From Phycisphaerae bacterium (GTDB taxonomy: Bacteria > Planctomycetota > Phycisphaerae > UBA1845 > Fen-1342): a DNA stretch of 64,000 nt. The DNA lies in NCBI GenBank assembly GCA_050115495.1, contig JASFQK010000025.1, positions 30,462 through 94,461 of the forward strand, in the 5' to 3' direction. Below the pieces are notes generated by a model, which saw only the letters and a list, made by a program, of their open reading frames with translations, made no database searches and was not told the origin of the DNA. This document shows, in pieces, positions 5,578 through 32,055 of this stretch. Made by a program: the position numbers and the translations under genes. Positions within the stretch are counted from its first letter, which is position 1. Each line of letters starts with the position of its first letter.

Positions 5578-5592
5578 GTCAGCCCCTCGCCG

Positions 5593-6102
5593 TCAACCGC
5601 GTGACCAGGACGGTCCGTGCATCCCGTGCCGCTGCGCCAGGGGCACGATGAACGTGGCCAGTGCCGCCACCAGTGCTCCCGTCAGAGACAGCACCAACGC
5701 CGACACGAGCAGTCCGCCCAGACCGGCGCCGGTGGCATCGAGCACGTAGCGCAGGTGCAGACCAAGCAGTACCTGCCCCGGCAGCGCCGCCAGAAAGCAG
5801 ATCGCCAGTCGTATCCACCACAGCGTGCCGTTGACGCGCTCGCGCAGCACGGTCAGGAAATACGCGGTCAGCCCGAGCGCAAACGCGTGCGCCCCCAGCG
5901 GGCCCTCGGTCATCAGGTCGACACCGAAGCCGATGATCCAACCGGCCAGCCGCGCCTCGGCGAGCGGTGCGGCCAGCCCGTAGATCAGGGCCAGGGCGAG
6001 CAGCAGATCGACGCCGTACGGACTCGCCAGACCCAGCCAGTGCAGGCCGGTTTGCAGCACGAGCGATACCAGCAGCGCTGCCAGCAGTCCCAGCCAGGTC
6101 AT
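5593..6102 (-). CDS. mreD: Rod shape-determining protein MreD-like membrane protein
   Basis: 169 aa, multiple TM segments; VDLLL, GWIIGFGVDL..GPLGAHAFAL pattern typical of MreD. Confidence 0.75.
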   Translation of the reverse strand: MTWLGLLAALLVSLVLQTGLHWLGLASPYGVDLLLALALIYGLAAPLAEARLAGWIIGFGVDLMTEGPLGAHAFALGLTAYFLTVLRERVNGTLWWIRLAICFLAALPGQVLLGLHLRYVLDATGAGLGGLLVSALVLSLTGALVAALATFIVPLAQRHGMHGPSWSRG

Positions 6103-6716
6103 GGTGCCGGGCTCGCCGGCGGCGGCTCCGCGTTGGCCGGCTCATTCGGCTCCGCCGGCCGATAGCCGATGGGGACGGGCACACGGAAGCGACGCGGCGT
6201 ACCCTCGATCACCCGTTGGTCCAGCCGCTCATAGCCGAAGACGATCTCGACCTGCTTGCCGACGAGGTCGACGCCCGCCGGCCAGCGCAGGGGGAACCCG
6301 TACTGGTAGCCCAGCTTCCGCTCGTAGCGGACGCGCCACTGCATCGCGTCGTGCTCGTTCATTTCCCAGCCGTGGACGAAGTCGCGCGTGTAGCGTCCGT
6401 CCGAGCCGCGCTGCACCGTGTACAACCAGACGAGAACCTTCCCGGGGACGAACGCCCCGCGCTCGGTCGCCGCCGAGTGGAAGAAGACCGAGGACTTGAA
6501 GCCAATGACGATGCCGTCGTTGTCGCGCAGCCAGGGGTCGCGGGCGTAGAAGCAATAGACGGCGGTGATGTCGTCGTGCGTCTTGATGCGGTGCACGTCG
6601 ATCTCACCCATGCCCTGTCCGCCGCCGGACGGCGCGGTACAGGCCGACAACCCCAACAGGCAGGCGGCCGCGAGCGCGACCGCAACGCAGTTTCGGCAAG
6701 ACGTCAACGTGGGCAC
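6099..6716 (-). CDS. Hypothetical lipoprotein directly downstream of the secretin (pilotin candidate)
   Basis: Lipobox LSAC after a hydrophobic stretch; GGAGG RBS; 12 nt after the secretin stop; stop overlaps the mreD start (ATGA). Confidence 0.75.
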   Translation of the reverse strand: MPTLTSCRNCVAVALAAACLLGLSACTAPSGGGQGMGEIDVHRIKTHDDITAVYCFYARDPWLRDNDGIVIGFKSSVFFHSAATERGAFVPGKVLVWLYTVQRGSDGRYTRDFVHGWEMNEHDAMQWRVRYERKLGYQYGFPLRWPAGVDLVGKQVEIVFGYERLDQRVIEGTPRRFRVPVPIGYRPAEPNEPANAEPPPASPAP

Positions 6717-6728
6717 GGCGGCCTCCGG

Positions 6729-9700
6729 CTAGTCCTTGCTGGCAAACAGGCTCATCGGCACATCGTACGAGTTCGGGTCGTAACGCAGCCCCAGGTCCCG
6801 CGGCTCGAGCCGGACCGGCGGCAGCGGACCGTACTGCTCCTCTTCGGTGCCCTGATCGGTGGGCTCACCGCTGCGATAGGGCCCCAGCAATTCGCCGCCG
6901 TCGACCGGCATGAGCTCTTCCGGGCGAACGCGCAGGCCGCGCATCAGTGGATCGGTCTTCACCTTGTCCGGGATGATGCCGGCATGGTCGCGGGCCTCGA
7001 TGGAAAGCTCGCGGTAATCCTCGACGGTGCGCACCACGCGCGGCGTCAGGATGACCAGCAGCTCCGAGCGCTTGTGGTCGTCGGTCTGGAATCGGAACAG
7101 CGGCCCGAGCAGCGGCAGGTCGCCCACCAGGGGCACCTTCTGCTCGGTCTTCGACTCGCGCGTCTGGATCAGGCCACCGAGCACCACCGTCTCGTTGTCC
7201 TGCACGGTGACCACGGTCTCGGCGACGCGCTCGTTGAAGATGGGGGCGGTCAGGCCCTGGCCGACGGCGATCGTCGAATCGCTCAGGTCCGACACTTCCT
7301 GGCGGATCTCGAGGCGGACGTAGCCGTCGGGGTTAATCTGCGGCGTGACCTCGAGCTTGATACCGACGTCGGAGCGCTGCACCGAGGTCGAGATCTGCCC
7401 GCCGGTGGTGGTCTGCGTCCCGGTCACGTAGGGCACGCTGTCGGTGACGCTGATGCTGGCCGGCTGGTTGTCCATGGCCACGATGTGCGGGCGGCTGAGC
7501 ACGTTCAGGCTGTTCTCGCTCTGCAACGTGTGCAGCAGGAAGTTGAAGTCACGCCCGGTGATCGTGAAGGTGAACCCGCCGAGACCGGCCCCGGCGGCGC
7601 CCACGTCGGTCCCGCCGACGTAGTCGAACGTCGTCGTGTCGTCGAGCCCGGCTTTGACGTACTGGAGATCCTGGAAGGCGAACTCGACGCCCAGCTCGAG
7701 CGAGTTGCCCATGGACACCTCGACGATCAGCACCTCGATGCTGACCTGCGGCGGGCACTGGTCGAGCTCGCGCACCATGCGCAGGATCTCCTCCTCGCGC
7801 CGCGGGCTATAGCTGAGGATGATGCGGTTCGAGGCCTCGTAGGCGATCGCCCCGACCTCGCTCTCCTGCCGGACGGCCAGCGAGATGTCCTCGCCCAGCT
7901 CGTCCAGCCGCTGCTGCTCCTGGTCGCTCCAGTCCTTCACGGCGGTGGCCAGGTCGGCCGCCACCATGTTCCGCGGCGGATAGACGATCGTCTTGCGATC
8001 GACCATCGGCACCGTGTCCAGTTGCAGGATTAACTGCTCGACCAGGTCGAGATAGCCGGGCGTGCCGGCGGCGATCACCGAGTTCGTCCGCATGTCGGTG
8101 GTGAAGCTCACTTCTTCACGCCCACCGCCCGCTCCGCCGCCGAGCGTCAGCTCACGCTCCGATTCGTCGCTGCCGCTGCGGCTCCCGCCGGACTGGCCGG
8201 CCGTCCGCCGCTCGAACAGCTCGTTGAGCATGTTGACCGTTTCCTCGGCGTCGGCGTTCTTCAGGGCGAAGATGCGAATGCGGGCCGCGTCGGGCGGCAC
8301 GTCGATCACCGCCACCAGCGACTCCATCAGGGGCATGCTCTCCGGCGGCGCGATGATCACGAGCGAGTTCGTCCGCAGGTCACCGATGACGGTGACGTCG
8401 CCGCGCATGGCCTTCAGCGTCTCCAGGCCCTCGCCGGGATTCTCACGCTGGAAGAGCAGCATGACCTGCTTCTCGTTCGCCTGCGTCGAGCGGCCGCTGC
8501 TGCCGCCGCTGCTGCCACCCACCGAGCCGCCACGACCTTCGAGAATGTTGCTCAGCACGTCGCTGGCTGACTCGGCATCCGTCTGCTCCAGCTTGAAGAT
8601 CCGCACGATCGCCCCGGTGCCCGGATCGGTGTCGTCCAGACGCCGCGCGAAGTCGGCGATTTCGGCCACCAGGGCCGGCGGACCGAAGGCCACGACCGAA
8701 TTCGTCGAGGGATCCGACGTTACGGAGACGTCGACGTCGTTGTCGCCGACGTTTTTGAAGATGGTCTCCGCCGCCTTGGCGACGTCCTCCGCCGAACCAC
8801 GCCGCAGCGGCACGATCTTCATCATGCGGCCAAGCTCGTTGGGCCGATCCAGCAGATCGACCCAGCGGTCCAGGTTCACCATGTCCTCCGCCGACGCCGC
8901 CATCAACAGGCTTTCCGAGAGCGGATCGGAGGCGATGTGGATCGGCGTACCCTTGAGGTTCGAGTCCTGCTCCTTGAGCGCCGTGTCGACCAGGTCCTGG
9001 AGCAGCGTGGCGATGTTCGCCGCGCTGTTCAGCTTGATCGGCCGCACCTTCATGACCACCGTCGGGTCGAACTGCTGGTCGAGGTTGTCGATCAGCGCCT
9101 CGGCCTCGGCCAGGTAGTCACGCGTGCCGGTCAGGATCAGCGAATTGCTCCGCGCGTCGGCGATGACGCTGAGCACGTCCTTCGCCTCGGAAGACTGCTC
9201 CTTCTCGGCGTCCTTCTTGCGGTCGAAGAGCTCTTCGAGCAGCCCGGCGAGCTTCTGGGCGTCGGCGTGGCCCAGCCGCCGGTAGCGCGTCGCCACCACA
9301 CGGTACGGGTCCGGCGCGTCCAGCTCCATCGCCAGCTCCTCGATCATGTCGTACACGTCGCGGGTGGCGAAGACGACCAGCCGATTCGAGCGGTCGTCGG
9401 GGATGATCACGGCGTTGTCCCGTGACTCGTTCTTGCCACCCAGAGCCTGCGTGCGCTGCTCCAGCAGGTCGCTCAGCTTCTCCTGGAGCGACGTGGCCGG
9501 GATGTTCTTCAGCTCGATCACGTACGCCCGCATGCCCAGTTCCTGCGTGGGCTTGTCCAGTTCGGCGATCAGGCCGGCCGCCAGCAGCACCGCGTCCTGC
9601 CGCCCGATGACGATCACCGTGTTGCTGCGCACGTCGTGCTGCACCACCACGTTGTAGGGCAGACCCTTGCCAGTCACGCCCGGCGGCACCGGCGGCAACA

Positions 9701-12700
9701 CGCCTTCTTTGAAGCCCTGGCTGTCGCCCTCGCTGGGCCGCATCAGCGGGCTCTTGTCCTTGAACACTTCCTCGAGCAGGCTGGCCACGTCCTCGGCGCT
9801 CGCGTATTGCAGCGAGATCGCCCGCAGCTCCGTCTCCGCTCCGATCGGCAGCGTGTCGAACACCTGCACGATCTCGGTGAGGGCCTCGTTGTTCTTCGGC
9901 GTCGAGAAGATGATCAGCGAGTTCGTGCCTTCCTCGGCGACGATGCGGATCGGCCGCTCCAAATCGAGCTCGGGCAGCTCGCGCCCGTCCGGCATCCGCA
10001 GCTTGATGACGCTCACGTACGGCTTGGCGGCCCGGTCACCGCCGCTGCTCGCCTCGCGGGCGGCATCCTGCTCCGCCTCGATCATGTCGGTCAGCACCTT
10101 GGCGATGTCCGTGGCCTGACCGTTCTGGAGCTGGATAAGCATGGCGTCAGCCCGCACGAAGCTCGCCCGGGCCTCGTCATCCTTGATCTCCACGTCGTAC
10201 GCTTCGAGCATGCGCTCGATGTCGGCCACGTCCTGCAGCGTACCCACGACGAACACGCTGTTCGAACGGTCGTCGGCCTCGATCGTGGCCTGCGATTCCT
10301 TGGGCACCTCGCGCTGGTCGTTCAACTTCTCGATGATCGGCCGCAACTTGGCCACGGCCTCCGACGCCCGCACGTGCTGCAACGGCACGCAGCGGAAGTC
10401 GGTCCGGTCCGTCGGATCCAGATCCAGCTTCTCGATGAGCTCGGCGATCTGCTCCATGATCGTCTCCGAGGCGGCGACGATCAGGGCGTTGCTGCGACCC
10501 TCGGCGTTGATGCTGAACTGCTCGTCGATGCCGGTGACGTCGATGCGAGCCTTGATGGCCGTCTCGATGACCGGGGCCAGGGCCGTCGCCTTGGCGTTGT
10601 TCACGTAGAAGACCTCGACGAGGGCCTGCGGCGCGGTCGCCTCCATCATGATCAGAATCTGCTCGATGAAGTCGATGTCGGTTTCGTCGCCCGAGAGAAT
10701 GACCTGGTGGTCATCGATGGCCGTGACAATCACGTCGCCGCGCAATTCGCCGCTGATACCGGTGATGCCCTCGACGACGGGCTGCGTCTGCGGCGCGTCG
10801 GTGACCGGCTCTTCGGCGGCCGGCTTCGGCGTCGCCTTGACCGGCGTCGTTCGGACGGGCGCCGGCTGGGCCTTCGGCTGTTTGTCCGCTCCGGCGCGGG
10901 GCCGCTGGGGGCGAGCCGGCGTCGTGCCGCGCGGTCGCGGCTTCGGCCCGGCCTGCGGTGGGTCATCCTCGCTGTCGTCGCTCAGCCACTGCCCCACCAG
11001 CGCCGCCCCAACGCTCGGCTGGAGCATCGTGACGCTGACGTATGGCGCCAGGCCCGCCGGCGTCGGTGCCGGCCAGAGCGACTCGCGCGTCTCGCGCATG
11101 TTCGGCCAGGTGGCGTCGCCGCGGCCGCGCGACCGGCGGGACGACCCGCCCGAGCGCGTCGGCGTGCTGCGCGAACCGCCCGACGAGCCGCGGCGCTGCT
11201 GCAACTCGTTGATGAGATTCTGCACGTCCTGTGCAGAACGTCCGCGCAACTGAATGACGCGCGTTACCTGGCGATCAGCCTTAACCGCAGCGAGCTGGTC
11301 CACCACCATCTGAACGCGTCCGAACAGGATCTGGTCGCCGCCGACCATCAGAGTATTCGTGTAGAGCTCGGGTTCCACCGACACGCGACGCGCCGTACGG
11401 CCCGTGCGCTCGGCGTCCTGCTCCTCGCTTTCGTTGACGATGCGCTCGACGTTAGTGGCCAGCCGCTCGACGTCCTGACCCAGCGGCACCTTGATCACGG
11501 CGATGTTCGGGCTGATTACATCCGGGTGGTCGAAGCGCTCGACGAGTCCGCGAATCTCCTCGATGTCACGCGGCGTGCCACGCACGACCAGCGTCTGGTT
11601 GTTGTCAAAGGGGACCATCTGCGGGCCCGTGCTCTCGCCGGCCGCCCCGCGTCCACCGCTGCCCCGCCCACGACTGCTGCCACCGCTCTGCTCGCGCTGG
11701 TCGATGAACTGCCAGATGAACGAGGCGATCTCCGTCGGCTTGACGTTCTCCACGGGGATGGTCGCGATCTGGAACTGGATCGATTCCTCATACATGTCGA
11801 TGACCTTCTCGGCCACGAAGTCAATATCATCCGACCGGCCGAAGACCATCACGGCATTGGTGCTCACGTCCGCGGTGGCCTGTACATCCAGCTCCCGCGC
11901 GGACATCGACGTACCGCCACCCATCATGCTCATCATGCCCCGGCCGCCGCCGCGGCGCATCGAGCCGGCACTTTCGCTGGAGCCGCCGGAGGCGTAGCTG
12001 TTGATCGCCTCGGCGACGACTTCGGCGTCGGCCTTGTCGAGCACGAAGACGCGGAAGTCACGCCGCATGTCGGCCGGCGTCTCCACGTCGATCGTAGCCA
12101 GCACGCTCTCCACGAAAGCGAACGTCTGCTGCGAGCCGACGACGATGATGCTCTTGGTGCGCGTATCGGGCACCACGGTGAACGGGTCGAAGCCGAGCTC
12201 CATGCTGCGACCGCCGCCGCGCCCGCTGAAGCTGTTCATCTGCACGAACTGCATGAGCGCGTCCTGCAGCGTGGCTACCAGCGACTCGGGGTCGGCGTAT
12301 TGCACCGCGAAGCGGCGAAGCTGCATGCCCTCGTTCGGCTGATCCAGCGTGGCGACGACGTCCTCGATCTGGAGGAAGGTGGGATCGGGGGCGCGCACGA
12401 GGAGCTTCTTCGAGTTCTTGTCGCCGATGATGACGAGGGAACCGCCGGTGCTGCCACTACTACCACGCGGTCCGCGGCGGCTGCTGGTCGCCGCGCCGGT
12501 GCCGCCGAACATCTCCAGCAGCTTGTCGGCGAGCTCTTCCGGATTGGCGTAGATGACGTCGATTTCGCGGATATCGCGCTTGTCGCCCAGATCGAGCTCC
12601 TCGATCTTCTCCAGGACGATCGCCCGCTTGTCGGGCGTACCGAAGACGACGATGACGTTGCTAGTCGGCTCGGCCACGATGCGCAGATCCTGGCTCGCGA

Positions 12701-15700
12701 CCGAGGTGTTGCCGCCGCCGCCCCGCCCCGGGCGCCCCGTCGTTCCGCCGGCGTAGATCGAACTGACCACGTCGGCGATCGCCGACGCGTCGCCGTACTT
12801 GCAGGCGTACGTCTCGGCCTCGGCGATGGCGCCTTCGATGTCCAGGCGCTGGATCTGGTCGAGGACCTTCTCCACGTCCTTGGCTTCGGCGGTGAAGATG
12901 ATCGTGTTGGTGCGCGGGTCGCCGGAGATGGTCACCGGACCCAGGGACCCGGGCGAACCGGCGCTGCCGCGACCGCCGCGGCCACCGCCGCCGCTCGTCG
13001 CCGCCGCGAAGACTTCCTGAAGCAGCGGCAGCACGTCGTCGACGCGCTTGGCGTTCAGCAACTCGTAGTGGTAGATGCCCACCACGTCGCGGCCTTCGAG
13101 CTGCTCGAGCTCGGTAATGACCTCTTCAATAAGCTGCATGACCTCCGGCGGAGCGGAGACCATCAGCGAGTTGGTCACGGCGTTGGCCACAATCTCAACG
13201 CTCTCGACCTTGGCCCCGCCCTCCACGCCGGCGACGGCCACCGTTTGCTGCTGAAGCATCTCCAGCAACTGCTGCTGCGCGTTGCCGCCGCGTCGGTTCG
13301 TGCGGGGGGCGCTGCTGCCGCGCCGTTGCTGGACCTTGTTAATGCCCAGCACTTCCCTGATGTTCCCAGCCGTCTCCTGGGCATCGAGGTTGTACAACTG
13401 GAAGACCTTGATCTCGACCTTTCCCGGCGGAATGTCCAATTCGCGGAGAAGCTGCTTGATCTCGGGCAGGTCGCTCTCCTGGCACTTGATAATAAGGTAG
13501 TTGTGGCCCGGGTCGGTGGCGATGCGGACGCGCTCGCCGGAGGTGGTCCGGCCGCTCCGCCCGCCGGACTGCCGGCCACCGACCATGCCGCGGAACTGGT
13601 CCATCATGCCGCCCTGGTCGCGGCCCTGCTGATCGCCCCGGCCGCGCTGCATCATCTGCTGCATCTGCTGCTGCATTTGTTGCATCTGCTGCATCTGCTG
13701 CGGCAGGCGCAGCGTCTGCCGGTCGTTGAACATGATCTGCACGACCTCGGCGGCCGCGGCCACGTCGCCGTACTTGAACTGGAAGATGCGGATCACCTCG
13801 CCGAGGTCCATGTCCTCTTCGAGCATGTCGAGGACGTCCTCAACCTCGTCAACGTCTTCCTTGGGACCGTAGATGATCGCCGTGTTGTCCGGCTGTATGA
13901 CGATGCGCGTCTGCTCCTTCTCCAGCGGCGGCTCCTGGCCGGCGGCCGGCGGCTCGCGCTTCGGCGGCTCCTGGGCCGTAGCAGGCTTCGCTGTCGGGGG
14001 CGACGGCCGCCGTCCCGCCGGTTGCGTCGTCGGCGGCTGATCGTCGAACAACGCCTCTTCGAAGTCGTCGCCGAGCAGGGCCACGCTCACCGGCAGGCCC
14101 AGCTTGAACGGCTGCACGTCCTTGCCCGAAGAACTGCGCTGCGGTTTGTCCTGCCGCTCCCGGCGCGGCGTCCGCTCCGGCGCCGAGTTCTCTTCCTGCT
14201 CCCACGGCAGCGGCTCATCGTCCTCCCACAGCGGCTCGACGATCGTCTTCCGCTGCGTCGGCGCCGGCATGTACTGGACGTCGAGGGTGTCACCGCCCAT
14301 GCGCTCACGCAGGTACGCCACCGCCGCCTCTGTGTCGCCGGTCAGCTTGCGGATGCGCGCCACGTGCTCGGGGTGAATCCACCTCTCATGCTTGCGGATG
14401 GCGGCAACGATACGGTCGTACTCGTTCGGCCGGCACCGCACCTTGATGTACTCGCCGAACCAGTCGGCCTCGATCACCGGGCCGCCCTTGTCCTCCGGCG
14501 GGAACATCTGGCGCACGTCCCAGGCGAGATCGAAGGCGCTGCCGCGGAGAACCTCGACGAAGAAGAGCTCCCGCCCGTTCGGGTCGGTCAGCCCGTCGCC
14601 CATGTCGATCTCCGCATCCAACTGCGCAACGAAAGCCTCAATCTGACGCATCTTGCGCTTGTTCGCCGTTATCAGCAGCCGATTGGCCGATTCGTCCGGC
14701 GTGATGGTCACCTTGTCCATCGCGGCCCCGCGGCCGCCACTCGGGAACAACTGCCCCAGCGTGTCGGCCACGTCGTAGGCACTGCTGTTGCGAAGCTGAA
14801 AGATCTGGAGCTCGGGGATCACCTCGCTCTTCGATTCGAGCTCTTCGATCCACTTCTCCACTTTGGCCATGTCCTCCGGCATGCCCGCCAGGATGATCGA
14901 GTTGCTGGCGGCGTCGGCGGTGATCCGCACCGTGGCCGCGCCACTGCGGGCCCCGGGCGAGCCGGCAGACCGGCCCATCCCGGCAACCACCGTATTCAGC
15001 GACTGGCCCATCTGCACGGCATCCGCCTTCTCCAGGGCGATGATGTGCACGATGTCGCCGCTCTCCACCTCCTGGTCGACCATGTTGATCAGCTCTTCGG
15101 CGAGCTTCTGGTACTCCTCCGGCGCCATGACGAACAGCCGGTTGCCGACCATGTCGGCCAACACAGCGGTCTGGGCCTGGATCTGCCGAGCAAGCTGACC
15201 CTCCGACTGGGCGATGCGAGCCTTGAGCATGGTGTCCACGCTCTGGGCCACCTGCTCCGCACGCGAGTTCTTCAATACATACGTGCGGGCGTCGGACTCC
15301 GGCATCTTCTGGCTTTCAAACCCGTTGATCAGCCGGTCGATGAACGGCATGTGATCCGGCGGAGCGATGACCAGCAGCGTATTGGTGGTCGGCTCCGGGA
15401 ACGCTCCCGGCCGCATCTGCCCCCGCGCCGGCGCCGGCAGCACGCTGCTCAGATAAGCCTGCACCTGCCCCGCCACCTGCGCGGCATTGAGCACCTTCAA
15501 CTCGTACACCTGGATCTTCAGGTCGGCCGGGGCCACGGCATCGAGCTGCTCGATGATCGCGAGGATGTCAGTCATCCTGTCCGGCGGAGCCTGCACGACA
15601 ATGCTGCGGCCGCCCGTAACGTTGAAGGAGATCTCCTGCCCCAGTTGGTTCCGCTGGCCGACGCGCCGCGGAACGTATTGGGAATTGAGGATGTTGAGCA

Positions 15701-18700
15701 CCTCGTACGGATCAGCGGTCTTCAGCTCAACGATCTTCATCTCGCCCCGGTGCGGATCGACCCGGCTCTCCAGGTCCATCGCCCACTTCTCAATCTCGTG
15801 GAAGTCCTCATCCCCGCCGCCGACGATGAGTGAGTTCGTCAGCGGTTCAGCCGTGATCTGCAGCGTCTTCGCGCGGATCTTCTCGTTGAAGATGTTGTTC
15901 AGGACACCGGCCACCGCGTTTGCATCCGCCTTCACCAGCGAAATCGTGCGCAGACGACTCCCCGCCACCGGCGGCTGGTCCAACTGCGCGATCAGCGCTT
16001 TGGCCATGGGCATCACAAACTTCGGCACGTTCAGCACGACCTCATTCAGCCGTGGCTCAACCGTGATGCTGATCCGGTCCGCCACCGTCCGCGTTCGCGC
16101 CGATTGCGCGACCAGGATCTGGCGAAGCTGGTTACCGACGTGCGCCGCATCGGCGTTGACGATCTTCACAAACTCCTGTTCTAGCGCGAGGTCCGCCGTC
16201 TCCTTCTCAAACGACGTGATAACCTCGTTGATCCGATCGAACATGTCCTTCGGCGCACTGACGATCAGCATCTCCGTCGTCTCGTCGTAAGAGAACGTCG
16301 CCCGCAGCCTGTCGGGGCGCGGCGGTTCCTTGGAGAAGATGCTGTTCAGATTGCTCGCCAACTTGCGCACGTCCAACCCGACTAGCTTGATGGTCTTGTT
16401 GACAATGACCGGCTCCGGCTGCTTGACCGGCTCGATGTCGTACTGGTCGAGCAGTAACAGGCCCTGCTTGACCGCCACATCCGGGCCGTTGATCACCACG
16501 CGGTTGGTCCGGGCGTCCGCTGTCACCTTGATTTTCGAAGCCGCCTGGCGCCCCAGAATGCCCTGCATGTACGTCACGAGTTGCTCACGCAGCCAATTGG
16601 CCGCCTCGGTCGCCTGGGCGTAGTTCATCTGGCGAAACTCGATCCGCGGCTCCGTGCCCTTCTGCGCTTCGGCGTAGTCGGCGATGAGCCGGTCGATCTC
16701 CTCCTGCACATCCTTGGAGCATGTAACGACGATCGTCTCTGCCTGCGTATCCGCGTCAAAACGAGCCACGACGTTGTTGCGAGAACGGAAGGCGTTGCCC
16801 AGCTTGCTGGCGATCTGGGCCACGTCCGCCCCCTCCAGCTTGACCGTCCGAATGATGATCTCGCTACCCTTCGGATCGTCGAGCTGCGCGATGAAGGCCG
16901 AGATCTCAGGCATGACGTCCTTCGGCGCCTCGATCACGACCTGCGGCCCGGAGGCTACCGCCTTGATCTGCGGACCGACCGGTCGCCCCCCCTTCCGGGA
17001 TCCGCTACCGTACATGGCCTGCACGGCCGATGCCACTTCCCGCGACTGGGCGAAACGCAGCGTGAAGAAGCGCTGCTCGGGGAGCTGCGCCCCGACCGCC
17101 TCGTCGCGCTCCTGGGCGTAGGCCTTGATCTTTTCCAGCGTCGCCGTATCGGCCTGGACGATCAGCGAGTTCGTCACGGACTCGGCCTGAATGATGGCCC
17201 CGCCGCTTCCGCCGACGGCTCGCCCCGGACGACGGCCACTCATGACCCCGCCGAAGAGCTGCATGGCTTCGGTGGCCACCTGCGTGGCGTCGGCGTGGGC
17301 CAGGGGCAGAATCTCGTAGCGGCTGCTGTCCTCGCGATCGAGGGCCTCGATCAGCGGCTTGATCTCGTCGATCGCCGGCTTGATGGCGTACAGCAGCACC
17401 GTGCTGCCGTCGGCCTGAATCAAGACCGCCGAGCGGCCCAGCGCCGGGTGCACGTACTGCCCGCGATACATGTTGTTCAGCAGGCTGGCGATGGACATCG
17501 CGTCGCCGAACTGCAGGTCGATCGTCTCCAGGCGCGGCTTGTTCGAGACCACGCCCTCGTCGAGCACCTGGATGATCTCCTCCACCTTGGTCCAGTCCTC
17601 GTCCGAGCAGACCACGATGAGCGTCTGGGCCTCGTCCAGCGGGATGATCTGGACCTCGGTCGATACCGCCGCCGGCGTCGCTCCGCGCATCCGGTTGAAC
17701 CGTCCGCGCGTGGGCGTCATGCTGCGCGTGGTGCCGCCGGACATCAGAACGGGCGTGATGACCTCGGCCACGCGGCTTGGGGCGATGTTCTGGAGCTGCA
17801 CCATGTGCCGCAGGCCCTCGGGCGTGGCCACGTCCAGCTCGGCGATGACCTCCTCGATCTGCTGCATCGCCTCGCGCTCGGCGATGATGTGGAACTGATT
17901 GTTCGCCTCGTCCAGCACGATGCTGGCCCCACGGCCGCGGCCGCCGGCCCCGATGTTCTGCACGATCTGGCTGATCGTGGGGAAGACCTGGGCGGCGTCG
18001 GCCTGCTCCAGCTTGATCGTCTGGAAGTTGCTCGGCTGAACCTTGTCGATTGTCTCCAGCAGTTCGCGGACGCGCTTCTGACCTTCGGCGTTGGCGTAGA
18101 CGATCAACGAGTTTGTCCGCTCGTCCGCCGCCAGCCGGATCGTCTTCTTGGCCCGCTCGAACGTGCCCTCGGCCAGAATGTCCTCAGGCGAGGTCTGCGC
18201 CTGTGTGGGCGTCCGGGTCGTCCGTCGCGTCCGCGACGATCCTCGCTGCTGCAACTGCCGCAGGCGCTGCCAGGCCGGCGTCGTAGCTGTTGAACCCTGC
18301 TCCTGCGAAAAGATCTTGTTCAGCAGGTCGGCGACGTCCGAGGCGTTGGCGTTCTCGATCACGATGACTTCGGTCTTGAACTCGCCGATATCCGGCTTCG
18401 CGTCGACCTTGTCAATAAGGTCCTGAATCTCCTCGAGCTTGGACGGGATGGCCTTGGCGATGATCGTGTTCGTGCGCTCGTCCGCGACGATGCGGATGTC
18501 CCGATCGTCGCCGCCCCCCGTCGTCACTGGAATCATCCGTCCGGTGCGCGGGTCGCGCTGCAGTTGCATCTGCGGACCGCTGCTCACCTCCAGCAGTTCA
18601 CGGACGATCCGCTCGACCTCGCTCGCGTTGGTCTTGACGTTGAAGATCTTTACCTTTCGCGGGTCACCTTCCTTGATGGCGATGCGGTCCATCAGGTCCA

Positions 18701-19679
18701 GCACCTTCCGGATCTCCCGCACCGGGCCGGTCATCTTGAGCTGGTTGGTATCGTCCAGGGCCGAGATGGTCAGCCCCTCCGAAACCATCAGCTCGAACAT
18801 GGACTGCACACGCGCCGCTGGATGCCCGGTCACAGTCACGAACACCGTCACGAAGTCCATCGGCCGCGCCGTGGCCTTCTCGAACTCCTGCCGCGAACCG
18901 AAGATCTGTGATTCCTTCACATGCCAGGGCATCTCCGACAGCAGCACGACGTAGATGTGGTGCTCTTCCTCAACGAACCGGAAACCCCGCATCTGCATGA
19001 TGAGGTTCAGTTCGTCGATCGCCTCGTCCTTCGTGAACTTGTAGTCGCTGTGGTAGGTCAGCGTGCCGCCGATCGCCAGCATGTCCATGTCCGTCATCAG
19101 CGGCTTGCCGATGCGATCCGCGAAATACTGGATCACGTCCTCCCACGGCATGTCGTCGAAGTTGAACCACTCCTCGTCATCCGTGGCGTGGCTCACCGGC
19201 TTCGCCGGCCGCATCTCGACCTCGCGTGACCGCTGCATCTCATCCGGCCTGGGCACGGGCACCACCGGCTGCGTCGCGACGCCGTTCTCCGTCAAGAGCT
19301 CGCGCGGCGTGGCCGGCGGATATGGCGGACCGAAAAAGTCGTCATCCGGATCAACCGCCGGACGCTCCCCACGCGGCGTGACCACGTGCCCCGCCGGTTG
19401 TGAACCGGGTGCAGTCGGCGGCGGCTCGCCGGCTTCCTCCCGCTGCTTCTGCTCCTCAGCCTGCCGGGCCAGCTCCAGGAGGATCCGCATGTCCTCATCG
19501 GTATCCGGCTGGCTGGCCGGCTGCGAAGCCGGCGGCTGTTGCCCGCCGGCCTGCGCGTTCGGCGCCGCCGGCTGCGGTGGCTGGGTATCCTGCGCCGTCG
19601 CGAGGCCGATCAGGCCGATCGCAACGACCGCGCTGAGTATCGCGCCCCATGCACTGTGTCGAAGGTCTTGCCGCAACAT
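6729..19679 (-). CDS. Giant type II secretion secretin (GspD-like), ~4316 aa: signal peptide, N0 domain, ~41 Secretin_N-like repeats, C-terminal secretin domain
   Basis: N0: FNFDDMPWEDVIQYFADRIG; repeated (A)DxRTNSLIV-type motifs; C-terminal PQVSIEVLIVEV, NVLSRPHIVAMDNQPASI, VGIKLEVTPQIN, KVPLVGDLPLLGPLFR, ELLVILTPRVV; ATG 19679 with GAGG RBS. Confidence 0.95.
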   Translation of the reverse strand: MLRQDLRHSAWGAILSAVVAIGLIGLATAQDTQPPQPAAPNAQAGGQQPPASQPASQPDTDEDMRILLELARQAEEQKQREEAGEPPPTAPGSQPAGHVVTPRGERPAVDPDDDFFGPPYPPATPRELLTENGVATQPVVPVPRPDEMQRSREVEMRPAKPVSHATDDEEWFNFDDMPWEDVIQYFADRIGKPLMTDMDMLAIGGTLTYHSDYKFTKDEAIDELNLIMQMRGFRFVEEEHHIYVVLLSEMPWHVKESQIFGSRQEFEKATARPMDFVTVFVTVTGHPAARVQSMFELMVSEGLTISALDDTNQLKMTGPVREIRKVLDLMDRIAIKEGDPRKVKIFNVKTNASEVERIVRELLEVSSGPQMQLQRDPRTGRMIPVTTGGGDDRDIRIVADERTNTIIAKAIPSKLEEIQDLIDKVDAKPDIGEFKTEVIVIENANASDVADLLNKIFSQEQGSTATTPAWQRLRQLQQRGSSRTRRTTRTPTQAQTSPEDILAEGTFERAKKTIRLAADERTNSLIVYANAEGQKRVRELLETIDKVQPSNFQTIKLEQADAAQVFPTISQIVQNIGAGGRGRGASIVLDEANNQFHIIAEREAMQQIEEVIAELDVATPEGLRHMVQLQNIAPSRVAEVITPVLMSGGTTRSMTPTRGRFNRMRGATPAAVSTEVQIIPLDEAQTLIVVCSDEDWTKVEEIIQVLDEGVVSNKPRLETIDLQFGDAMSIASLLNNMYRGQYVHPALGRSAVLIQADGSTVLLYAIKPAIDEIKPLIEALDREDSSRYEILPLAHADATQVATEAMQLFGGVMSGRRPGRAVGGSGGAIIQAESVTNSLIVQADTATLEKIKAYAQERDEAVGAQLPEQRFFTLRFAQSREVASAVQAMYGSGSRKGGRPVGPQIKAVASGPQVVIEAPKDVMPEISAFIAQLDDPKGSEIIIRTVKLEGADVAQIASKLGNAFRSRNNVVARFDADTQAETIVVTCSKDVQEEIDRLIADYAEAQKGTEPRIEFRQMNYAQATEAANWLREQLVTYMQGILGRQAASKIKVTADARTNRVVINGPDVAVKQGLLLLDQYDIEPVKQPEPVIVNKTIKLVGLDVRKLASNLNSIFSKEPPRPDRLRATFSYDETTEMLIVSAPKDMFDRINEVITSFEKETADLALEQEFVKIVNADAAHVGNQLRQILVAQSARTRTVADRISITVEPRLNEVVLNVPKFVMPMAKALIAQLDQPPVAGSRLRTISLVKADANAVAGVLNNIFNEKIRAKTLQITAEPLTNSLIVGGGDEDFHEIEKWAMDLESRVDPHRGEMKIVELKTADPYEVLNILNSQYVPRRVGQRNQLGQEISFNVTGGRSIVVQAPPDRMTDILAIIEQLDAVAPADLKIQVYELKVLNAAQVAGQVQAYLSSVLPAPARGQMRPGAFPEPTTNTLLVIAPPDHMPFIDRLINGFESQKMPESDARTYVLKNSRAEQVAQSVDTMLKARIAQSEGQLARQIQAQTAVLADMVGNRLFVMAPEEYQKLAEELINMVDQEVESGDIVHIIALEKADAVQMGQSLNTVVAGMGRSAGSPGARSGAATVRITADAASNSIILAGMPEDMAKVEKWIEELESKSEVIPELQIFQLRNSSAYDVADTLGQLFPSGGRGAAMDKVTITPDESANRLLITANKRKMRQIEAFVAQLDAEIDMGDGLTDPNGRELFFVEVLRGSAFDLAWDVRQMFPPEDKGGPVIEADWFGEYIKVRCRPNEYDRIVAAIRKHERWIHPEHVARIRKLTGDTEAAVAYLRERMGGDTLDVQYMPAPTQRKTIVEPLWEDDEPLPWEQEENSAPERTPRRERQDKPQRSSSGKDVQPFKLGLPVSVALLGDDFEEALFDDQPPTTQPAGRRPSPPTAKPATAQEPPKREPPAAGQEPPLEKEQTRIVIQPDNTAIIYGPKEDVDEVEDVLDMLEEDMDLGEVIRIFQFKYGDVAAAAEVVQIMFNDRQTLRLPQQMQQMQQMQQQMQQMMQRGRGDQQGRDQGGMMDQFRGMVGGRQSGGRSGRTTSGERVRIATDPGHNYLIIKCQESDLPEIKQLLRELDIPPGKVEIKVFQLYNLDAQETAGNIREVLGINKVQQRRGSSAPRTNRRGGNAQQQLLEMLQQQTVAVAGVEGGAKVESVEIVANAVTNSLMVSAPPEVMQLIEEVITELEQLEGRDVVGIYHYELLNAKRVDDVLPLLQEVFAAATSGGGGRGGRGSAGSPGSLGPVTISGDPRTNTIIFTAEAKDVEKVLDQIQRLDIEGAIAEAETYACKYGDASAIADVVSSIYAGGTTGRPGRGGGGNTSVASQDLRIVAEPTSNVIVVFGTPDKRAIVLEKIEELDLGDKRDIREIDVIYANPEELADKLLEMFGGTGAATSSRRGPRGSSGSTGGSLVIIGDKNSKKLLVRAPDPTFLQIEDVVATLDQPNEGMQLRRFAVQYADPESLVATLQDALMQFVQMNSFSGRGGGRSMELGFDPFTVVPDTRTKSIIVVGSQQTFAFVESVLATIDVETPADMRRDFRVFVLDKADAEVVAEAINSYASGGSSESAGSMRRGGGRGMMSMMGGGTSMSARELDVQATADVSTNAVMVFGRSDDIDFVAEKVIDMYEESIQFQIATIPVENVKPTEIASFIWQFIDQREQSGGSSRGRGSGGRGAAGESTGPQMVPFDNNQTLVVRGTPRDIEEIRGLVERFDHPDVISPNIAVIKVPLGQDVERLATNVERIVNESEEQDAERTGRTARRVSVEPELYTNTLMVGGDQILFGRVQMVVDQLAAVKADRQVTRVIQLRGRSAQDVQNLINELQQRRGSSGGSRSTPTRSGGSSRRSRGRGDATWPNMRETRESLWPAPTPAGLAPYVSVTMLQPSVGAALVGQWLSDDSEDDPPQAGPKPRPRGTTPARPQRPRAGADKQPKAQPAPVRTTPVKATPKPAAEEPVTDAPQTQPVVEGITGISGELRGDVIVTAIDDHQVILSGDETDIDFIEQILIMMEATAPQALVEVFYVNNAKATALAPVIETAIKARIDVTGIDEQFSINAEGRSNALIVAASETIMEQIAELIEKLDLDPTDRTDFRCVPLQHVRASEAVAKLRPIIEKLNDQREVPKESQATIEADDRSNSVFVVGTLQDVADIERMLEAYDVEIKDDEARASFVRADAMLIQLQNGQATDIAKVLTDMIEAEQDAAREASSGGDRAAKPYVSVIKLRMPDGRELPELDLERPIRIVAEEGTNSLIIFSTPKNNEALTEIVQVFDTLPIGAETELRAISLQYASAEDVASLLEEVFKDKSPLMRPSEGDSQGFKEGVLPPVPPGVTGKGLPYNVVVQHDVRSNTVIVIGRQDAVLLAAGLIAELDKPTQELGMRAYVIELKNIPATSLQEKLSDLLEQRTQALGGKNESRDNAVIIPDDRSNRLVVFATRDVYDMIEELAMELDAPDPYRVVATRYRRLGHADAQKLAGLLEELFDRKKDAEKEQSSEAKDVLSVIADARSNSLILTGTRDYLAEAEALIDNLDQQFDPTVVMKVRPIKLNSAANIATLLQDLVDTALKEQDSNLKGTPIHIASDPLSESLLMAASAEDMVNLDRWVDLLDRPNELGRMMKIVPLRRGSAEDVAKAAETIFKNVGDNDVDVSVTSDPSTNSVVAFGPPALVAEIADFARRLDDTDPGTGAIVRIFKLEQTDAESASDVLSNILEGRGGSVGGSSGGSSGRSTQANEKQVMLLFQRENPGEGLETLKAMRGDVTVIGDLRTNSLVIIAPPESMPLMESLVAVIDVPPDAARIRIFALKNADAEETVNMLNELFERRTAGQSGGSRSGSDESERELTLGGGAGGGREEVSFTTDMRTNSVIAAGTPGYLDLVEQLILQLDTVPMVDRKTIVYPPRNMVAADLATAVKDWSDQEQQRLDELGEDISLAVRQESEVGAIAYEASNRIILSYSPRREEEILRMVRELDQCPPQVSIEVLIVEVSMGNSLELGVEFAFQDLQYVKAGLDDTTTFDYVGGTDVGAAGAGLGGFTFTITGRDFNFLLHTLQSENSLNVLSRPHIVAMDNQPASISVTDSVPYVTGTQTTTGGQISTSVQRSDVGIKLEVTPQINPDGYVRLEIRQEVSDLSDSTIAVGQGLTAPIFNERVAETVVTVQDNETVVLGGLIQTRESKTEQKVPLVGDLPLLGPLFRFQTDDHKRSELLVILTPRVVRTVEDYRELSIEARDHAGIIPDKVKTDPLMRGLRVRPEELMPVDGGELLGPYRSGEPTDQGTEEEQYGPLPPVRLEPRDLGLRYDPNSYDVPMSLFASKD
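13648..13700 (-). repeat. Imperfect 9-bp tandem repeat encoding QQMQQMQQMQQQMQQMMQ inside the secretin
   Basis: (tgcatctgc)n units visible on the + strand. Confidence 0.8.
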
Positions 19680-19913
19680 CCGTGCACCTCTTCCTGATAA
19701 GGCGTCTGAGCCGTCCGTTCCAGAGCGGCTCTCAGGCACTGTCATGAACGGCCGCCGCGCTGGCCGGCACGTCCCTCTCCCATCTCTCACAACAACTGAT
19801 CCGGTCGGGGCCGTCCCCGGAATCCGTCCCGCCCCGAGGCCCCGGCGACCCGTCAGGTCATCAACTTATACTCACCAACCGCGCCCGGGTCGCACGACCC
19901 GGACCCACTCTGC

Positions 19914-21047
19914 TTAACCCGGAGCCAGGGCCAGCTCCAGCGCCCGCTGAAGCTCCGGCTCGCTCGCCGGATCCAGCTCCCGGCGATCCGCAAACGTGGC
20001 TCCCAGGTCGTACACGTAGTACTTGTATCCGAACGATCCATCCCGCTCTTCCGCGGGCACCTGCTCCACCATGCCCCGCGGATAGACGAGCACCAGCGTC
20101 CCATCCCACACGGGCTCGTTGATGTGGATCCTCTCCGGCTCCAGGTCCAGCCGGTCATCGTCCCGCACGTACGCCGTCAACACGCCGTCCGTCGACGTCA
20201 CGCCGATCAGTGTCTTGTTCGGCGGCGGCTCCTCGCGCACCACCACTGGCCCCGGCTCCGGCCCGTCGTTGGCGATCGGCGGCGGGTCGGGCGGCGTTGG
20301 CGTTGTCCGCGTCGGCGTCCACAGTTTGAAGACGTTCTTGTCCAGAACGGCCGCGTACTCGTCCGACGGCCGCGGCAACCGCCCCTGCTGCGCCTCGTCC
20401 ACCGGCTCAGGCCGTTCGATCGCGGCCTGCTCTACATCCTTGATCTCCGGCAGCACTAGCGCCGTCGCCGTCAGGGTGATGTTGAGCGGCGGGCCGTCCG
20501 GTCCGGCGGCCACCGGCTGCTCGTTACGCCGGTTTGACGGCGCGTTACGTGCCCCGGGGCCGCGGCTCCGCGACGACCGCCTGCTCTCCACCGCCGACAG
20601 GTTGATCTGCTCCAGGCGGGCCGGGTACTCCCGGCGGTAGAAGTCGCACAGGAAGCCGAGCACCTGCTTGAACGTGCCGCGCGTGGTCACCGACAGGCGT
20701 ACCTCGGTGAAGTGCGTCGACTTCAGCGTGCGGGCCGGCAGGTTGCGGATCGTGCAGCTTTCGCCCAGCCCATGCGCATCGAGCAGGTTGCTCATGTCCT
20801 CGCGGAAGCGCCCCGCCCCGACACCTTCGTTGTGCGCCAGGGGCTGAATGGCCCCCCAGTCCTCGACTGCACGCTTGGCGTGCACTAGCCGCGTCTCCAG
20901 CTCCTGCTTGCGGCTGATCGCTGCCGTCATCTCTTTGTCGAGATTGTCCCAGCGGTCGATCACCCCCCACTGGATCGCCATCCAGAGCCCGCCGAGAACC
21001 AGGATGCCGGCCACACACGCAGCCAGGACTCTCTCGCGTGGATTCAT
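19914..21047 (-). CDS. PilO/GspM-like inner-membrane platform protein with extra C-terminal (GspC-like) region
   Basis: MNPRERVL start, single TM, coiled coil, GTFKQVLGFLCDF (PilO-like), Pro-rich linker, then TLIGVT...AYVRD beta domain. Confidence 0.65.
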   Translation of the reverse strand: MNPRERVLAACVAGILVLGGLWMAIQWGVIDRWDNLDKEMTAAISRKQELETRLVHAKRAVEDWGAIQPLAHNEGVGAGRFREDMSNLLDAHGLGESCTIRNLPARTLKSTHFTEVRLSVTTRGTFKQVLGFLCDFYRREYPARLEQINLSAVESRRSSRSRGPGARNAPSNRRNEQPVAAGPDGPPLNITLTATALVLPEIKDVEQAAIERPEPVDEAQQGRLPRPSDEYAAVLDKNVFKLWTPTRTTPTPPDPPPIANDGPEPGPVVVREEPPPNKTLIGVTSTDGVLTAYVRDDDRLDLEPERIHINEPVWDGTLVLVYPRGMVEQVPAEERDGSFGYKYYVYDLGATFADRRELDPASEPELQRALELALAPG

Positions 21048-21077
21048 CAACACACTCCGTAGGCAACCACCGTGGGC

Positions 21078-24267: not shown

Positions 24268-25097
24268 CAGAAGTTACCCTCCACGCCGAGCTGCTCCCCG
24301 AACTCCTTGCCCACGCGCTGCAACCGGCTCGAGAAGAACCGGTCGGCCGCCGGAATCCGCACGATGATGCTGTAGCGGTCCGGATGGACCTGGTCGTCAC
24401 CCAGCGGATAGTCGGCGATGGGGTACGTCGTCAGGTCCTGGTCTTCGTACTCCTCACGCAGCAACGGGTCGAACCCCACCGTGACCTGCACCAGTTGCGG
24501 CAGCGGGTTGCCCTCTTCCAGGTCCCACGTCGTCGTCCATTCCACGCCGTCGAAGTAGCGGAACTCGAGGTAGTGCAGTTCCGGCGACCACAGATCATGG
24601 CGAAGCTGCTCCGGGTCCTCCTCGTCCACCAGGAACTGGTTCAGCGTCTTCTTCTCGACACGCAGCAGACCCTCCACCACCGGGTCGCCGTCTTCCGTCT
24701 CCTCGTCCGGGTTGATGTGCAGCATGTAGCTGAGCTCGACCAGGTCGTGCTGGCCGGGCGGCAGCGTGTCGAACTCGCTGTAGAACTGGTACTGCTCGTC
24801 GGCCGGCAGCGCCGTCGTCACGAAGTGGATGCTGCGCCGGTCCCCTGTGAGCCGCGGCTCGACCGGAAAGCCAAACTGCTCCGTGCCCAGACAGCCGCGC
24901 AGCTCGGCGGCGATGCGGCTCAGCACCAGGCGGGCGACCTCCGTACGGTCGGCGATCGCCGCGGCCTGCTGCCGCATGTTGAGGCTCCCGAAGTAGAAGG
25001 TCAGCAGCGCACCGACGAGCATGGTGATCAGCGTGATGGAGATCACCACTTCGAGCAGGGTGAGGCCCCGCGTCGGCCGTCGGGCGCACTGCGTCAT
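24267..25097 (-). CDS. Minor pseudopilin (GspJ-like)
   Basis: RGLTLLEVVISI N-methylation motif; LEFRYFDG..W...W..LPQLVQVTV C-terminus. Confidence 0.82.
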   Translation of the reverse strand: MTQCARRPTRGLTLLEVVISITLITMLVGALLTFYFGSLNMRQQAAAIADRTEVARLVLSRIAAELRGCLGTEQFGFPVEPRLTGDRRSIHFVTTALPADEQYQFYSEFDTLPPGQHDLVELSYMLHINPDEETEDGDPVVEGLLRVEKKTLNQFLVDEEDPEQLRHDLWSPELHYLEFRYFDGVEWTTTWDLEEGNPLPQLVQVTVGFDPLLREEYEDQDLTTYPIADYPLGDDQVHPDRYSIIVRIPAADRFFSSRLQRVGKEFGEQLGVEGNF

Positions 25098-30816: not shown

Positions 30817-30904
30817 ACCAGCCTCCTTGTCCTGTGCCCTATGATACTGCGGAGCGCGCCGGGACGCGCGGCCTTGCCCACCCGGCCGTATGGAGGACGA
30901 TGCG

Positions 30905-31978: not shown

Positions 31979-32055
31979 GGGCGGCGAGGCATAAAATCCG
32001 ACCGGAACGGGGACGGCCGACCGTCCACATGGAGTAAACACCGGAGGTATCCCGC

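Follow-up and report, generated by a model that had tools for sequence, protein, structure and literature searches.

The locus and its reading frame

We analysed a stretch of 64,000 nucleotides from contig JASFQK010000025.1 (assembly GCA_050115495.1), hereafter the window, which belongs to an uncultured Phycisphaerae bacterium, and in it one very long gene on the minus strand. This gene encodes a genuine GspD-type secretin of the type II secretion system (T2SS), referred to here as the giant secretin. In its gspF-G-H-I-J-K-L-M-D operon, which is read from a single strand, no other large gene comes after it (Table 1). The frame is open from 6729 to 19790, namely, over 4353 codons counted from the first GTG, with no internal stop. 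The database version of the protein (P0002) begins at M38 (19679) and has 4316 amino acids (aa). These are also the coordinates given in an earlier reading of this DNA from its letters alone (the original prediction), whose claim of a giant secretin is upheld by our translation and by the matching database protein. Residue numbers of the parts of the protein refer throughout to the 4353-aa frame.

At the DNA level, Tandem Repeats Finder detected no domain-length tandem repeat in the gene (the longest period was 30 bases), and the units of its product are only distantly alike, with best local paralogue scores of 48-104. A second assembly, from a wetland metagenome run, provided a Logan contig of 31,934 nucleotides that spans positions 6000-21100 with 0 differences; this run may be the source sample, and the second assembly would then not be independent. 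Scattered identical contigs are present in two further runs. A joint of 12372 to 14324 found among the contig matches was disregarded, as it rests on 22-base side matches of an unrelated contig. In a metatranscriptome library, 13 contigs of at least 99% identity lie over 5', middle and 3' parts of the gene and over the gene upstream (14 of 30 bins), which is a weak hint of transcription, DNA carry-over being possible; the 16 bins of the gene without such contigs are uninformative.

Antisense to the secretin gene, the plus strand holds frames at 9636-15833 (2065 aa), 5967-8033 (688 aa) and 16581-18293 (570 aa). These are most likely shadow open reading frames (ORFs) of a gene with 65-70% G+C, rather than genes.

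Domain architecture of the giant secretin

The domain content of the protein was determined with profile searches, with the following results. First, the Pfam family Secretin (PF00263) was matched at residues 4089-4254 with 175.9 bits (E 6.7e-52; profile positions 2-169), above its gathering score. Second, Secretin_N reached 990 bits over 33 stretches at E<=0.01, and in a whole-genome Pfam scan 33 of the 37 Secretin_N matches fall in this one frame. Third, a hidden Markov model (HMM) iterated from one repeat of the protein, which is circular by construction, recovered 41 units at an independent E-value (i-E) below 0.01 plus one weak unit, the same number as the manual count of about 41 made beforehand. 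Since one domain contributes two of the 41 units, as its halves, and the weak unit is a divergent full domain, the count comes to approximately 41 domains. The units have a median length of 70 aa, and at 38 of the 40 junctions they are separated by a median gap of 9.5 aa (range 6-18), the remaining two gaps being of 191 and 82 residues. The previously proposed succession of one N0-like domain, about 41 Secretin_N-type repeats and one barrel is thus recovered by Pfam and HMM searches, with a sub-threshold match for N0. The N0 region aligns colinearly but weakly with N0-N1 of E. coli GspD (5wq7; phmmer, 12.6 bits), and the GspD N0 model, PF21305, is precomputed on several distant homologues.

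The assignment to GspD is also made at the level of whole protein families. The GspD equivalog model TIGR02517 scores 1082.3 bits against a cut-off of 351.35, a value inflated by its 18 matched stretches, of which the best covers model positions 148-600; the PilQ and SctC models score 336 and 297, respectively. The AMIN family, an N-terminal trait of PilQ, is absent from the Pfam matches of the protein. Six secretin-domain matches are present in the genome, the other five being located in ordinary frames of 370-988 aa, one of them below the cut-off.

To the barrel-proximal part, residues 3218-4353, we applied AlphaFold2 (AF2) as a monomer with a 17-row alignment, which gave a model with a mean predicted local distance difference test score (pLDDT) of 65 and a predicted template modelling score (pTM) of 0.32. 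In the model, nine to ten consecutive beta-alpha-beta-beta-alpha units, with cores at pLDDT 70-87, precede the barrel, whereas the loops and the last ~60 residues are disordered. The geometry from domain to domain is unusable because of the low pTM. A Foldseek search placed T2SS GspD chains at the top (5zdh, 6i1x, 5wq9, 5wq8, 6i1y, 6hcg and 5wq7; E 9e-24 to 6e-21), followed by the injectisome protein InvG and then PilQ.

Conservation is uneven along the protein. The last ~31% has 53-59% identity with homologues, and block 3 is the counterpart of the N-domains in the barrel-bearing gene of the split relatives described below. The C-terminal tail is conserved near its end across homologues, with invariant Y1125 and P1128 (numbering of the segment).

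Table 1. Features of the giant secretin locus, and array genes of its split relatives.
Feature	Position	Strand	Remarks
Giant secretin gene, GspD-type	6729..19679	-	4316 aa from ATG at 19679; TIGR02517 1082 bits
Sec signal peptide, predicted	19590..19679	-	Residues 38 to ~67, read from translation; top hydrophobic 12-mer at Kyte-Doolittle (KD) 2.81
N0-like domain	18921..19169	-	Residues ~208-290; PF21305 E 2.7e-4
Block 1, 18 Secretin_N-type domains	14616..18917	-	Residues 292-1725; self-derived HMM; colinear orthologue for each
Divergent domain; first half-domain (presumed); linker 1, disordered and Pro-rich	13923..14615	-	Residues 1726-1956
Block 2, 11 units	11112..13922	-	Residues 1957-2893; opens with second half-domain, closes with first half-domain
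Linker 2, disordered, basic/Pro-rich, in the alpha1-beta2 loop of a domain	10764..11111	-	Residues 2894-3009
Block 3, 12 units, most conserved third	7761..10763	-	Residues 3010-4010
Secretin barrel domain, PF00263	7029..7526	-	Residues 4089-4254
C-terminal tail, ~100 aa	6732..7028	-	Modelled as disordered, pLDDT <50
Lipoprotein P0122, 205 aa, no known family	6099..6716	-	Lipobox read in sequence
Inner-membrane protein P0123, PilO/GspM-like and PilP/GspC-HR-like	19914..21053	-	Gene directly upstream of secretin
PilM/GspL-like platform protein, 556 aa	21078..22748	-	PF11104 E 2e-22; TIGR01175 103 bits, below cut-off 133
GspK-like minor pseudopilin, 519 aa	22708..24267	-	PF21687 E 2e-16; NF037980 81 bits, below cut-off 130
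GspJ-like pseudopilin, 276 aa	24267..25097	-	N_methyl motif; T2SSJ 18.6 bits, weak
GspI-like pseudopilin, 353 aa, weak	25094..26155	-	XpsI model E 4e-6, far below cut-off
GspH-like pseudopilin, 232 aa	26083..26781	-	N_methyl; TIGR01708 E 3.3e-8, below cut-off
Major pseudopilin GspG, 151 aa	26872..27327	-	TIGR01710 122.4 bits, above cut-off 88.85
GspF platform protein, first operon gene, 402 aa	27355..28563	-	PF00482 E 5.9e-62; TIGR02120 354.6 bits, cut-off 424
Split relative G026			Barrel-less array gene directly upstream: 5512 aa, 54 units, own signal peptide; secretin 1888 aa
Split relative G038			Two barrel-less array genes upstream: 1355 aa (7 units) and 1215 aa (14 units); secretin 1605 aa
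Split relative G039			Barrel-less array gene upstream: at least 1900 aa, 21 units, contig ends
Split relative G040			Barrel-less array genes upstream: 2770+ aa and 855+ aa

An old, position-specific array found in Phycisphaerae

Homologues were searched among proteins of 2394-7618 aa, with 1662 candidates scored, and 232 proteins were found at E<=1e-3, of which 120 were listed. Where the matches listed carry a name, they are called either 'type II secretion system protein D' or else 'secretin N-terminal domain-containing protein', and the named homologues come from Phycisphaerae or Planctomycetota metagenome genomes, one being filed under another genus. Likewise, the named loci found in the species-genome collection belong to Phycisphaerae or Planctomycetota metagenome-assembled genomes only. 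The planctomycete affiliation suspected from the sequence is thereby confirmed and narrowed to the class Phycisphaerae by the names of the homologues. The repeat HMM found 30-64 units in 118 of the 121 proteins examined, namely, those of at least 3000 aa, and 19-22 units in the three others, of ~2400 aa. One cluster member has 6241 aa, and one form of 5037 aa was assembled four times independently.

Two genome sets were used to delimit the family. In the first, the organism and 40 relatives from its family and order (41 genomes), an open frame of 3449-5029 aa surrounds the best secretin domain in 20 genomes. In the second, for which 150 genomes were sampled evenly across the phylum and matches taken at E<=1e-42, frames of at least 3000 aa among the matches listed occur only in the organism's own genome and in three of the six genomes listed from the same class (4490, 4754 and 5073 aa); none of the matches listed from other classes exceeds 1353 aa.

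The 41 units were then compared one by one with those of four homologues of 32-46% identity. The match between proteins beats the best paralogue for 40, 36, 39 and 37 of the 41 units, and the order of the units is colinear, the matched position increasing at 35, 34, 37 and 35 of 40 steps. When two proteins from a distant clade are used instead, the match beats the paralogue for only 26 of the 41 units and colinearity is partial. Because each domain has its own colinear orthologue in the close clade, these alignments indicate that the array is old and position-specific, and not a recently amplified, homogenised repeat.

Domain number can also change in this family. In one homologue (P0020, 5010 aa), several consecutive domains appear twice and near-identical by eye, which suggests a recent tandem duplication as one way in which this happens. 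Moreover, one related genome (G024) carries two giant secretin frames, of 4022 and 4649 aa, on separate contigs, each followed by a homologue of the lipoprotein gene considered below; these are either paralogous giant systems or the product of a mixed bin (contamination is given as 6%).

The statement in the original prediction that long secretins are annotated in this phylum yet uncharacterised proved to be accurate: annotation as GspD is routine in public databases, and we found no description of them in the literature searched. Our full-text search, outside of which most subscription journals lie, returned no description of secretins with tens of N-domains, and the word 'secretin' has 0 occurrences in a 2025 review of the phylum (PMC12673574).

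Intra-domain linkers and split-gene relatives

The two long gaps in the array correspond to disordered linkers whose flanks are informative. Linker 2 is preceded by a unit that matches positions 1-52 of the HMM (37.3 bits) and followed by one that matches positions 46-85 (18.8 bits), and linker 1 is followed by a second half-unit (HMM 51-87, 27 bits). The first half-domain at linker 1 is presumed from its position and from the split point in G038, one of the relatives described next. In the HMM consensus, the break point is a variable Gly/Arg/Ser-rich loop between helix 1 and strand 2. The profile matches thus place both long linkers within domains, in the alpha1-beta2 loop, and not between domains.

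These same loops appear as gene boundaries elsewhere. In four genomes from other families of the same order, the complete frame around the best secretin measures only 1605-1888 aa; it has a signal peptide of its own and 14-15 units, and barrel-less array genes are located directly upstream (Table 1). The upstream genes of these split relatives finish on a first half-unit (HMM 1-26, 1-32 or 2-32), a short basic tail and a stop, and the downstream genes begin with a signal peptide and then a second half-unit (HMM 42-, 49-, 52- or 53-87). The split points of G038 are both linkers of the giant secretin. A phmmer search of the split-relative ORFs with the N0 region and the junction-1 segment gave no match at E<=1e-3 with these queries. 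Taken together, the comparison indicates that covalent continuity across both loops is dispensable, so that, most simply, the two halves would form one domain, in cis here and in trans in the split relatives.

In addition, one related contig (G033:C21) has a barrel frame of only 1492 aa, with a GspM-like gene ~13.4 kb upstream on the same strand, and here, too, the giant system is probably split or frameshifted.

As for the direction of this change, we considered whether the linkers contain fossil signal peptides, as a gene fusion would leave behind, and this was ruled out. The hydrophobic patches in the linkers reach KD 1.79 and 1.39, at the level of the protein background (median 1.38, maximum 2.27), compared with 2.15-2.81 for real signal peptides. 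A tree was built from the C-terminal 700 aa of 35 long and four split forms (IQ-TREE quick, LG+G4, 674 columns). In this tree, whose root on P0079/P0080 was chosen and in which the label 'fused' derives from length and Pfam annotation only, the split forms fall inside a 100%-supported clade together with fused clades, all outer lineages being fused; monophyly of the split forms has 28% support. As the linker patches are at background and the split forms nest among fused lineages, fission in pre-existing loops appears to be the more parsimonious origin of the split genes. Neither the two intra-domain linkers nor the split-gene relatives, nor the partner gene of the next section, were part of the original prediction.

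The operon and its partner genes

Upstream, the operon is bounded by a divergent DEAD-box helicase gene on the plus strand. Beyond the helicase, at 30379-33834, we observed genes for a DUF6941 protein (minus strand), a putative aminopeptidase with PF10023 (plus) and a BatD-domain protein (plus), which are, as far as seen, unrelated to the secretion operon. Of the two directions of transport entertained in the original prediction, uptake of large cargo was not borne out, the operon being a type II secretion, that is, export, gene set. The minor pseudopilins are long when compared with their models, namely, 519 against 307 positions for the GspK-like protein, 353 against 132 for GspI-like, 276 against 192 for GspJ-like and 232 against 169 for GspH-like, which may relate to a longer or wider pseudopilus tip.

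The gene directly upstream of the secretin encodes P0123, an inner-membrane protein conserved over its full length in the organism's family (24 of 24 genomes). Where contigs allow (e.g. G007, G005, G004 and G013), its gene shares the strand of the secretin and is found ~13 kb upstream of the barrel. In an AF2 model of P0123 (7-row alignment, pLDDT 69), a transmembrane helix is followed by an alpha/beta domain (58-193), a Pro-rich stretch that is disordered and a six-stranded beta domain (267-336; pLDDT 80-92). With VIA-align, the first domain matched PilO (2rjz_B, Z 12.0, root-mean-square deviation (rmsd) 1.8 over 92 residues), EpsM (9.1) and PulM (9.0). The C-terminal domain (model 256-339) matched five PilP chains at Z 6.5-7.5 (7.5, 7.0, 6.9 and 6.5 for those named), as well as the HR domain of GspC (3oss_C, Z 7.2, rmsd 2.4, 61 of 65 residues), and it has no Pfam match at E<=10. 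All matches of this small domain belong to the family that binds secretin N0 domains; 3oss is the GspC-GspD complex, and in known systems the HR/PilP beta domain binds secretin N0. The modelled fold is therefore suggestive, and makes the PilP/GspC-HR-like domain of P0123 a candidate dock for N0. Compared with the PilO-PilP and GspM-GspC subcomplexes (2rjz, 2lc4, 2y4y, 3oss), P0123 has likewise a PilO/GspM-like fold and a PilP/GspC-HR-like domain, but joins both in one polypeptide through a Pro-rich linker of ~65 residues.

On the other side of the secretin, the lipoprotein gene P0122 follows directly downstream in 39 of the 41 related genomes. P0122 has no Pfam or NCBIfam match, and its relatives in a protein atlas are hypothetical proteins found only in Planctomycetota, with a beta-sandwich model; no named pilotin family is among these atlas matches. 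Its lipobox and position make P0122 a candidate pilotin or accessory protein. A 201-aa frame at 5579-6184 on the minus strand, with no family match, shares ~85 bases with the 3' end region of the lipoprotein gene and may be a further gene of the operon.

Comparison with known secretins

To our knowledge, all characterised secretins have three to six periplasmic ring domains, sized to a periplasm of ~25-35 nm, and in every solved secretin the barrel is a 12-15-mer whose N1-N3-type domains form stacked rings. The closest known system is GspD of the T2SS (PulD, EpsD, XcpQ; 15-mers 5wq7, 5wq8, 5zdh, 6hcg and 5wln), which is the best match by both sequence model and fold. Both have a C-terminal barrel preceded by N1-N3-type domains, the giant secretin begins with a putative N0-like domain, and both are co-encoded with gspF-M genes. 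However, the giant secretin has ~41 N-domains in 4316 aa, compared with three N-domains in ~650-750 aa, together with two intra-domain loop-outs and a C-terminal tail with a conserved end of its own. Furthermore, its operon lacks gspC and gspE and is adjoined by a lipoprotein of no family in the libraries searched. When compared with operons of the type IV pilus secretin PilQ, this operon has GspG- and GspK-type pseudopilins and no ATPase; the PilM-like and PilO/PilP-like folds also occur in GspL, M and C.

A precedent for lengthening is provided by PilQ of Thermus thermophilus (757 aa), described in the available part of PMC5745081 as a 13-mer of 350 Å with six stacked N rings (N0-N5) that spans a wide periplasm. 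It likewise extends the periplasmic channel by added ring domains, and is in this sense a working precedent for more domains making a longer conduit. The differences, as far as that part of the source goes, are six rings against ~41 domains, a type IV pilus and DNA-uptake context against a T2SS gene set, and a single polypeptide with neither intra-domain linkers nor split-gene forms.

The split Phycisphaerae systems (G026, G038, G039 and G040) share orthologous arrays, the barrel, the neighbourhood and the same two break loops with the giant secretin. Whereas all of these parts are here in one polypeptide, they are there distributed over two or three genes, each with its own signal peptide, with barrel-less arrays of up to 5512 aa and 54 units.

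With regard to the envelope of the phylum, an enlarged periplasm and 'press stud-like' junctions joining the outer with the cytoplasmic membrane have been described in Planctomycetia, the available text giving no protein composition for the latter (PMC5394234). The crateriform structures of the same report are, as our system may be, planctomycetal complexes that link both membranes, but they belong to another class, and 'secretin' has 0 occurrences in that paper.

A proposed ring-stack conduit and its alternatives

By analogy with these systems, the giant secretin may be read as a conduit of ~41 rings that docks through N0 on an inner-membrane platform and exports exoproteins, driven by a GspG pseudopilus, a reading to which we assign an even chance as a whole. 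In this proposal, 12-15 protomers would form the outer-membrane barrel. Each of the ~41 domains would thereby surround a common axis in 12-15 copies, so that the domains would stack as rings into a continuous conduit. With ~3-4.5 nm per ring, as estimated from the dimensions of Thermus PilQ, this conduit would measure ~120-185 nm and ~5.6-7 MDa. The two disordered linkers would loop out within single domains, leaving the stack uninterrupted, and in the split relatives two polypeptides would come together to restore each cut domain. At the distal end, N0 would contact the PilP/GspC-HR-like domain of the PilO/GspM-like protein encoded upstream. Folded exoproteins would be pushed through tube and gate by a GspG pseudopilus matched in length to the tube, with an ATPase supplied from elsewhere in the genome, and the lipoprotein may pilot or cap the barrel. 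Such a device would serve to couple the inner-membrane platform to the outer-membrane pore where the periplasm is enlarged or varies in width. The more general form of this proposal, that the arrays, whether fused or split over up to three secreted polypeptides, form one 12-15-fold ring stack of more than 100 nm that staples both membranes, with cut domains re-formed by half-domain complementation, is one that we put forward tentatively, as somewhat less probable than its opposite.

Several observations weigh against the conduit. The ring stack itself would follow from analogy with solved secretins, the pTM of 0.32 of the monomer model leaves inter-domain geometry untrustworthy, and a rigid tube of 120-185 nm far exceeds an ordinary periplasm; a measured periplasm width for Phycisphaerae was not found in the literature searched. 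The repeat HMM is circular, Pfam alone giving 33 units, and the first half-domain at linker 1 was not detected by the HMM (-0.7 bits). At the inner-membrane end, the GspD N0 model matched residues 210-280 with 21.2 bits, under the Pfam cut-off of 27, and the Z of ~7 of the PilP/HR-like domain is middling, within the range where unrelated small beta domains also score. The operon has no gspC, with no match to the GspC model, and no prepilin peptidase was seen in it, no search having been aimed at the peptidase. It also has no gspE, the 14 T2SSE matches of the genome all lying on other contigs; since several of these ATPases adjoin no secretin, the ATPase of the giant system is probably one of the orphan T2SSE genes. 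Lastly, the RNA-library contigs, which may be DNA carry-over, cannot prove a full-length transcript or protein.

The alternative that survives best is that of a flexible tether, in which the barrel and the few domains next to it would make up the usual vestibule, and the 30-odd distal domains would be beads-on-a-string arms that extend to the inner-membrane platform and hold it over varying distances, or would form an open cage, without a sealed conduit. The Thermus PilQ ring stack is itself flexible, with variable ring distances and a hinge, according to the available part of PMC5745081. The barrel-proximal third is clearly the most conserved, the AF2 monomer has no fixed inter-domain packing, and the array contains two long disordered linkers. 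However, these linkers lie inside domains and not between them, the linkers that do lie between domains are short and uniform (median 9.5 aa), and every unit shows position-specific conservation across families, all of which an ordered stack fits better; in addition, the N1-N3-type domains of solved secretins all sit in rings. We thus regard the tether as unlikely, though deserving of serious attention.

A second alternative concerns not the shape but the integrity of the protein. The working form may not be full-length, but be cut in the linkers, or have its barrel third made separately, to give a secretin of ~1400 aa plus separate array proteins, and such parts may assemble other than as one coaxial tube. 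The linkers are indeed long, exposed and basic/Pro-rich, and the relatives encode the same parts as two or three separate secreted proteins split at the same loops. A methionine is present at residue 2898 in linker 2, where two homologues have leucine. Against this alternative, the frame is open across both linkers in at least 20 of the 41 related genomes and in more than 100 database homologues. The linker patches are far below real signal peptides, so that a product begun inside the frame would have no signal for export. Were the protein cut, half-domain complementation would still hold its parts together. We consider this alternative improbable.

Third, the same structure may serve another cargo or direction, namely, the extrusion of polysaccharide or slime, a long pilus-like fibre, or the uptake of macromolecules. 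Secretins of the GspD/PilQ type are reported as slime nozzles in cyanobacteria and myxobacteria in the available part of PMC12475490, and planctomycetes take up dextran via fibres from crateriform structures that join both membranes, according to the available text of PMC5394234. Within the operon, the platform genes match the models of PilM, PilO and PilP at least as well as those of GspL, M and C. Against this, the major pseudopilin scores above the GspG equivalog cut-off, a GspK-type minor pseudopilin is present, and the operon contains no retraction ATPase or polysaccharide synthesis gene. Furthermore, giant fused forms were seen in the phylum sample only in the organism's own class, whereas the crateriform structures were described in another. 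We give this possibility little credence.

Finally, that the gene is an assembly fusion, a repeat mis-assembly or a decaying pseudogene, as might be feared from a metagenome-assembled genome of 85 contigs whose best DNA source may be the originating sample, in which case the second assembly would not be independent, was ruled out for all practical purposes by 13 kb without a stop or frameshift, by repeats that are distantly alike as protein and unrepeated as DNA, by conserved neighbouring genes, by the second assembly and by the same architecture in 232 proteins of the database, drawn from many assemblies, among them a 4.5-Mb contig and the four independent 5037-aa copies.

Implications for the planctomycetal envelope

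Secretins are among the best-studied outer-membrane machines, and the giant secretin is an extreme, conserved and apparently unstudied form of the T2SS secretin. The term undescribed machine, for which the original prediction made it a candidate, is too strong, as it is an extreme variant of a known one. What we add are the intra-domain loop-outs, the naturally split forms and the PilO-PilP-like fusion partner. The split relatives offer a testable principle of assembly, in which the alpha1-beta2 loop of a domain is severed and two polypeptides presumably restore the domain, and they reveal a class of barrel-less Secretin_N array proteins. The giant secretin is thereby a genetically defined target for cryo-electron tomography and cryo-electron microscopy in a phylum in which the make-up of envelope complexes is mostly unknown.

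Since Planctomycetota belong to the major degraders of complex polysaccharides, the export of folded enzymes in this phylum is ecologically relevant. A secretin family with 30-64 domains raises the questions of how a two-membrane nanomachine stays coupled across an enlarged periplasm and of whether domain number alone sets the length of a channel. If the more general form of the conduit reading is true, the giant secretin would form a multi-megadalton pipe across the enlarged planctomycetal periplasm, longer than any trans-envelope conduit known from a bacterial secretion system. Such a pipe would need a pseudopilus as long as itself, and it would be a candidate for the molecular basis of the 'press-stud' connections of the envelope.

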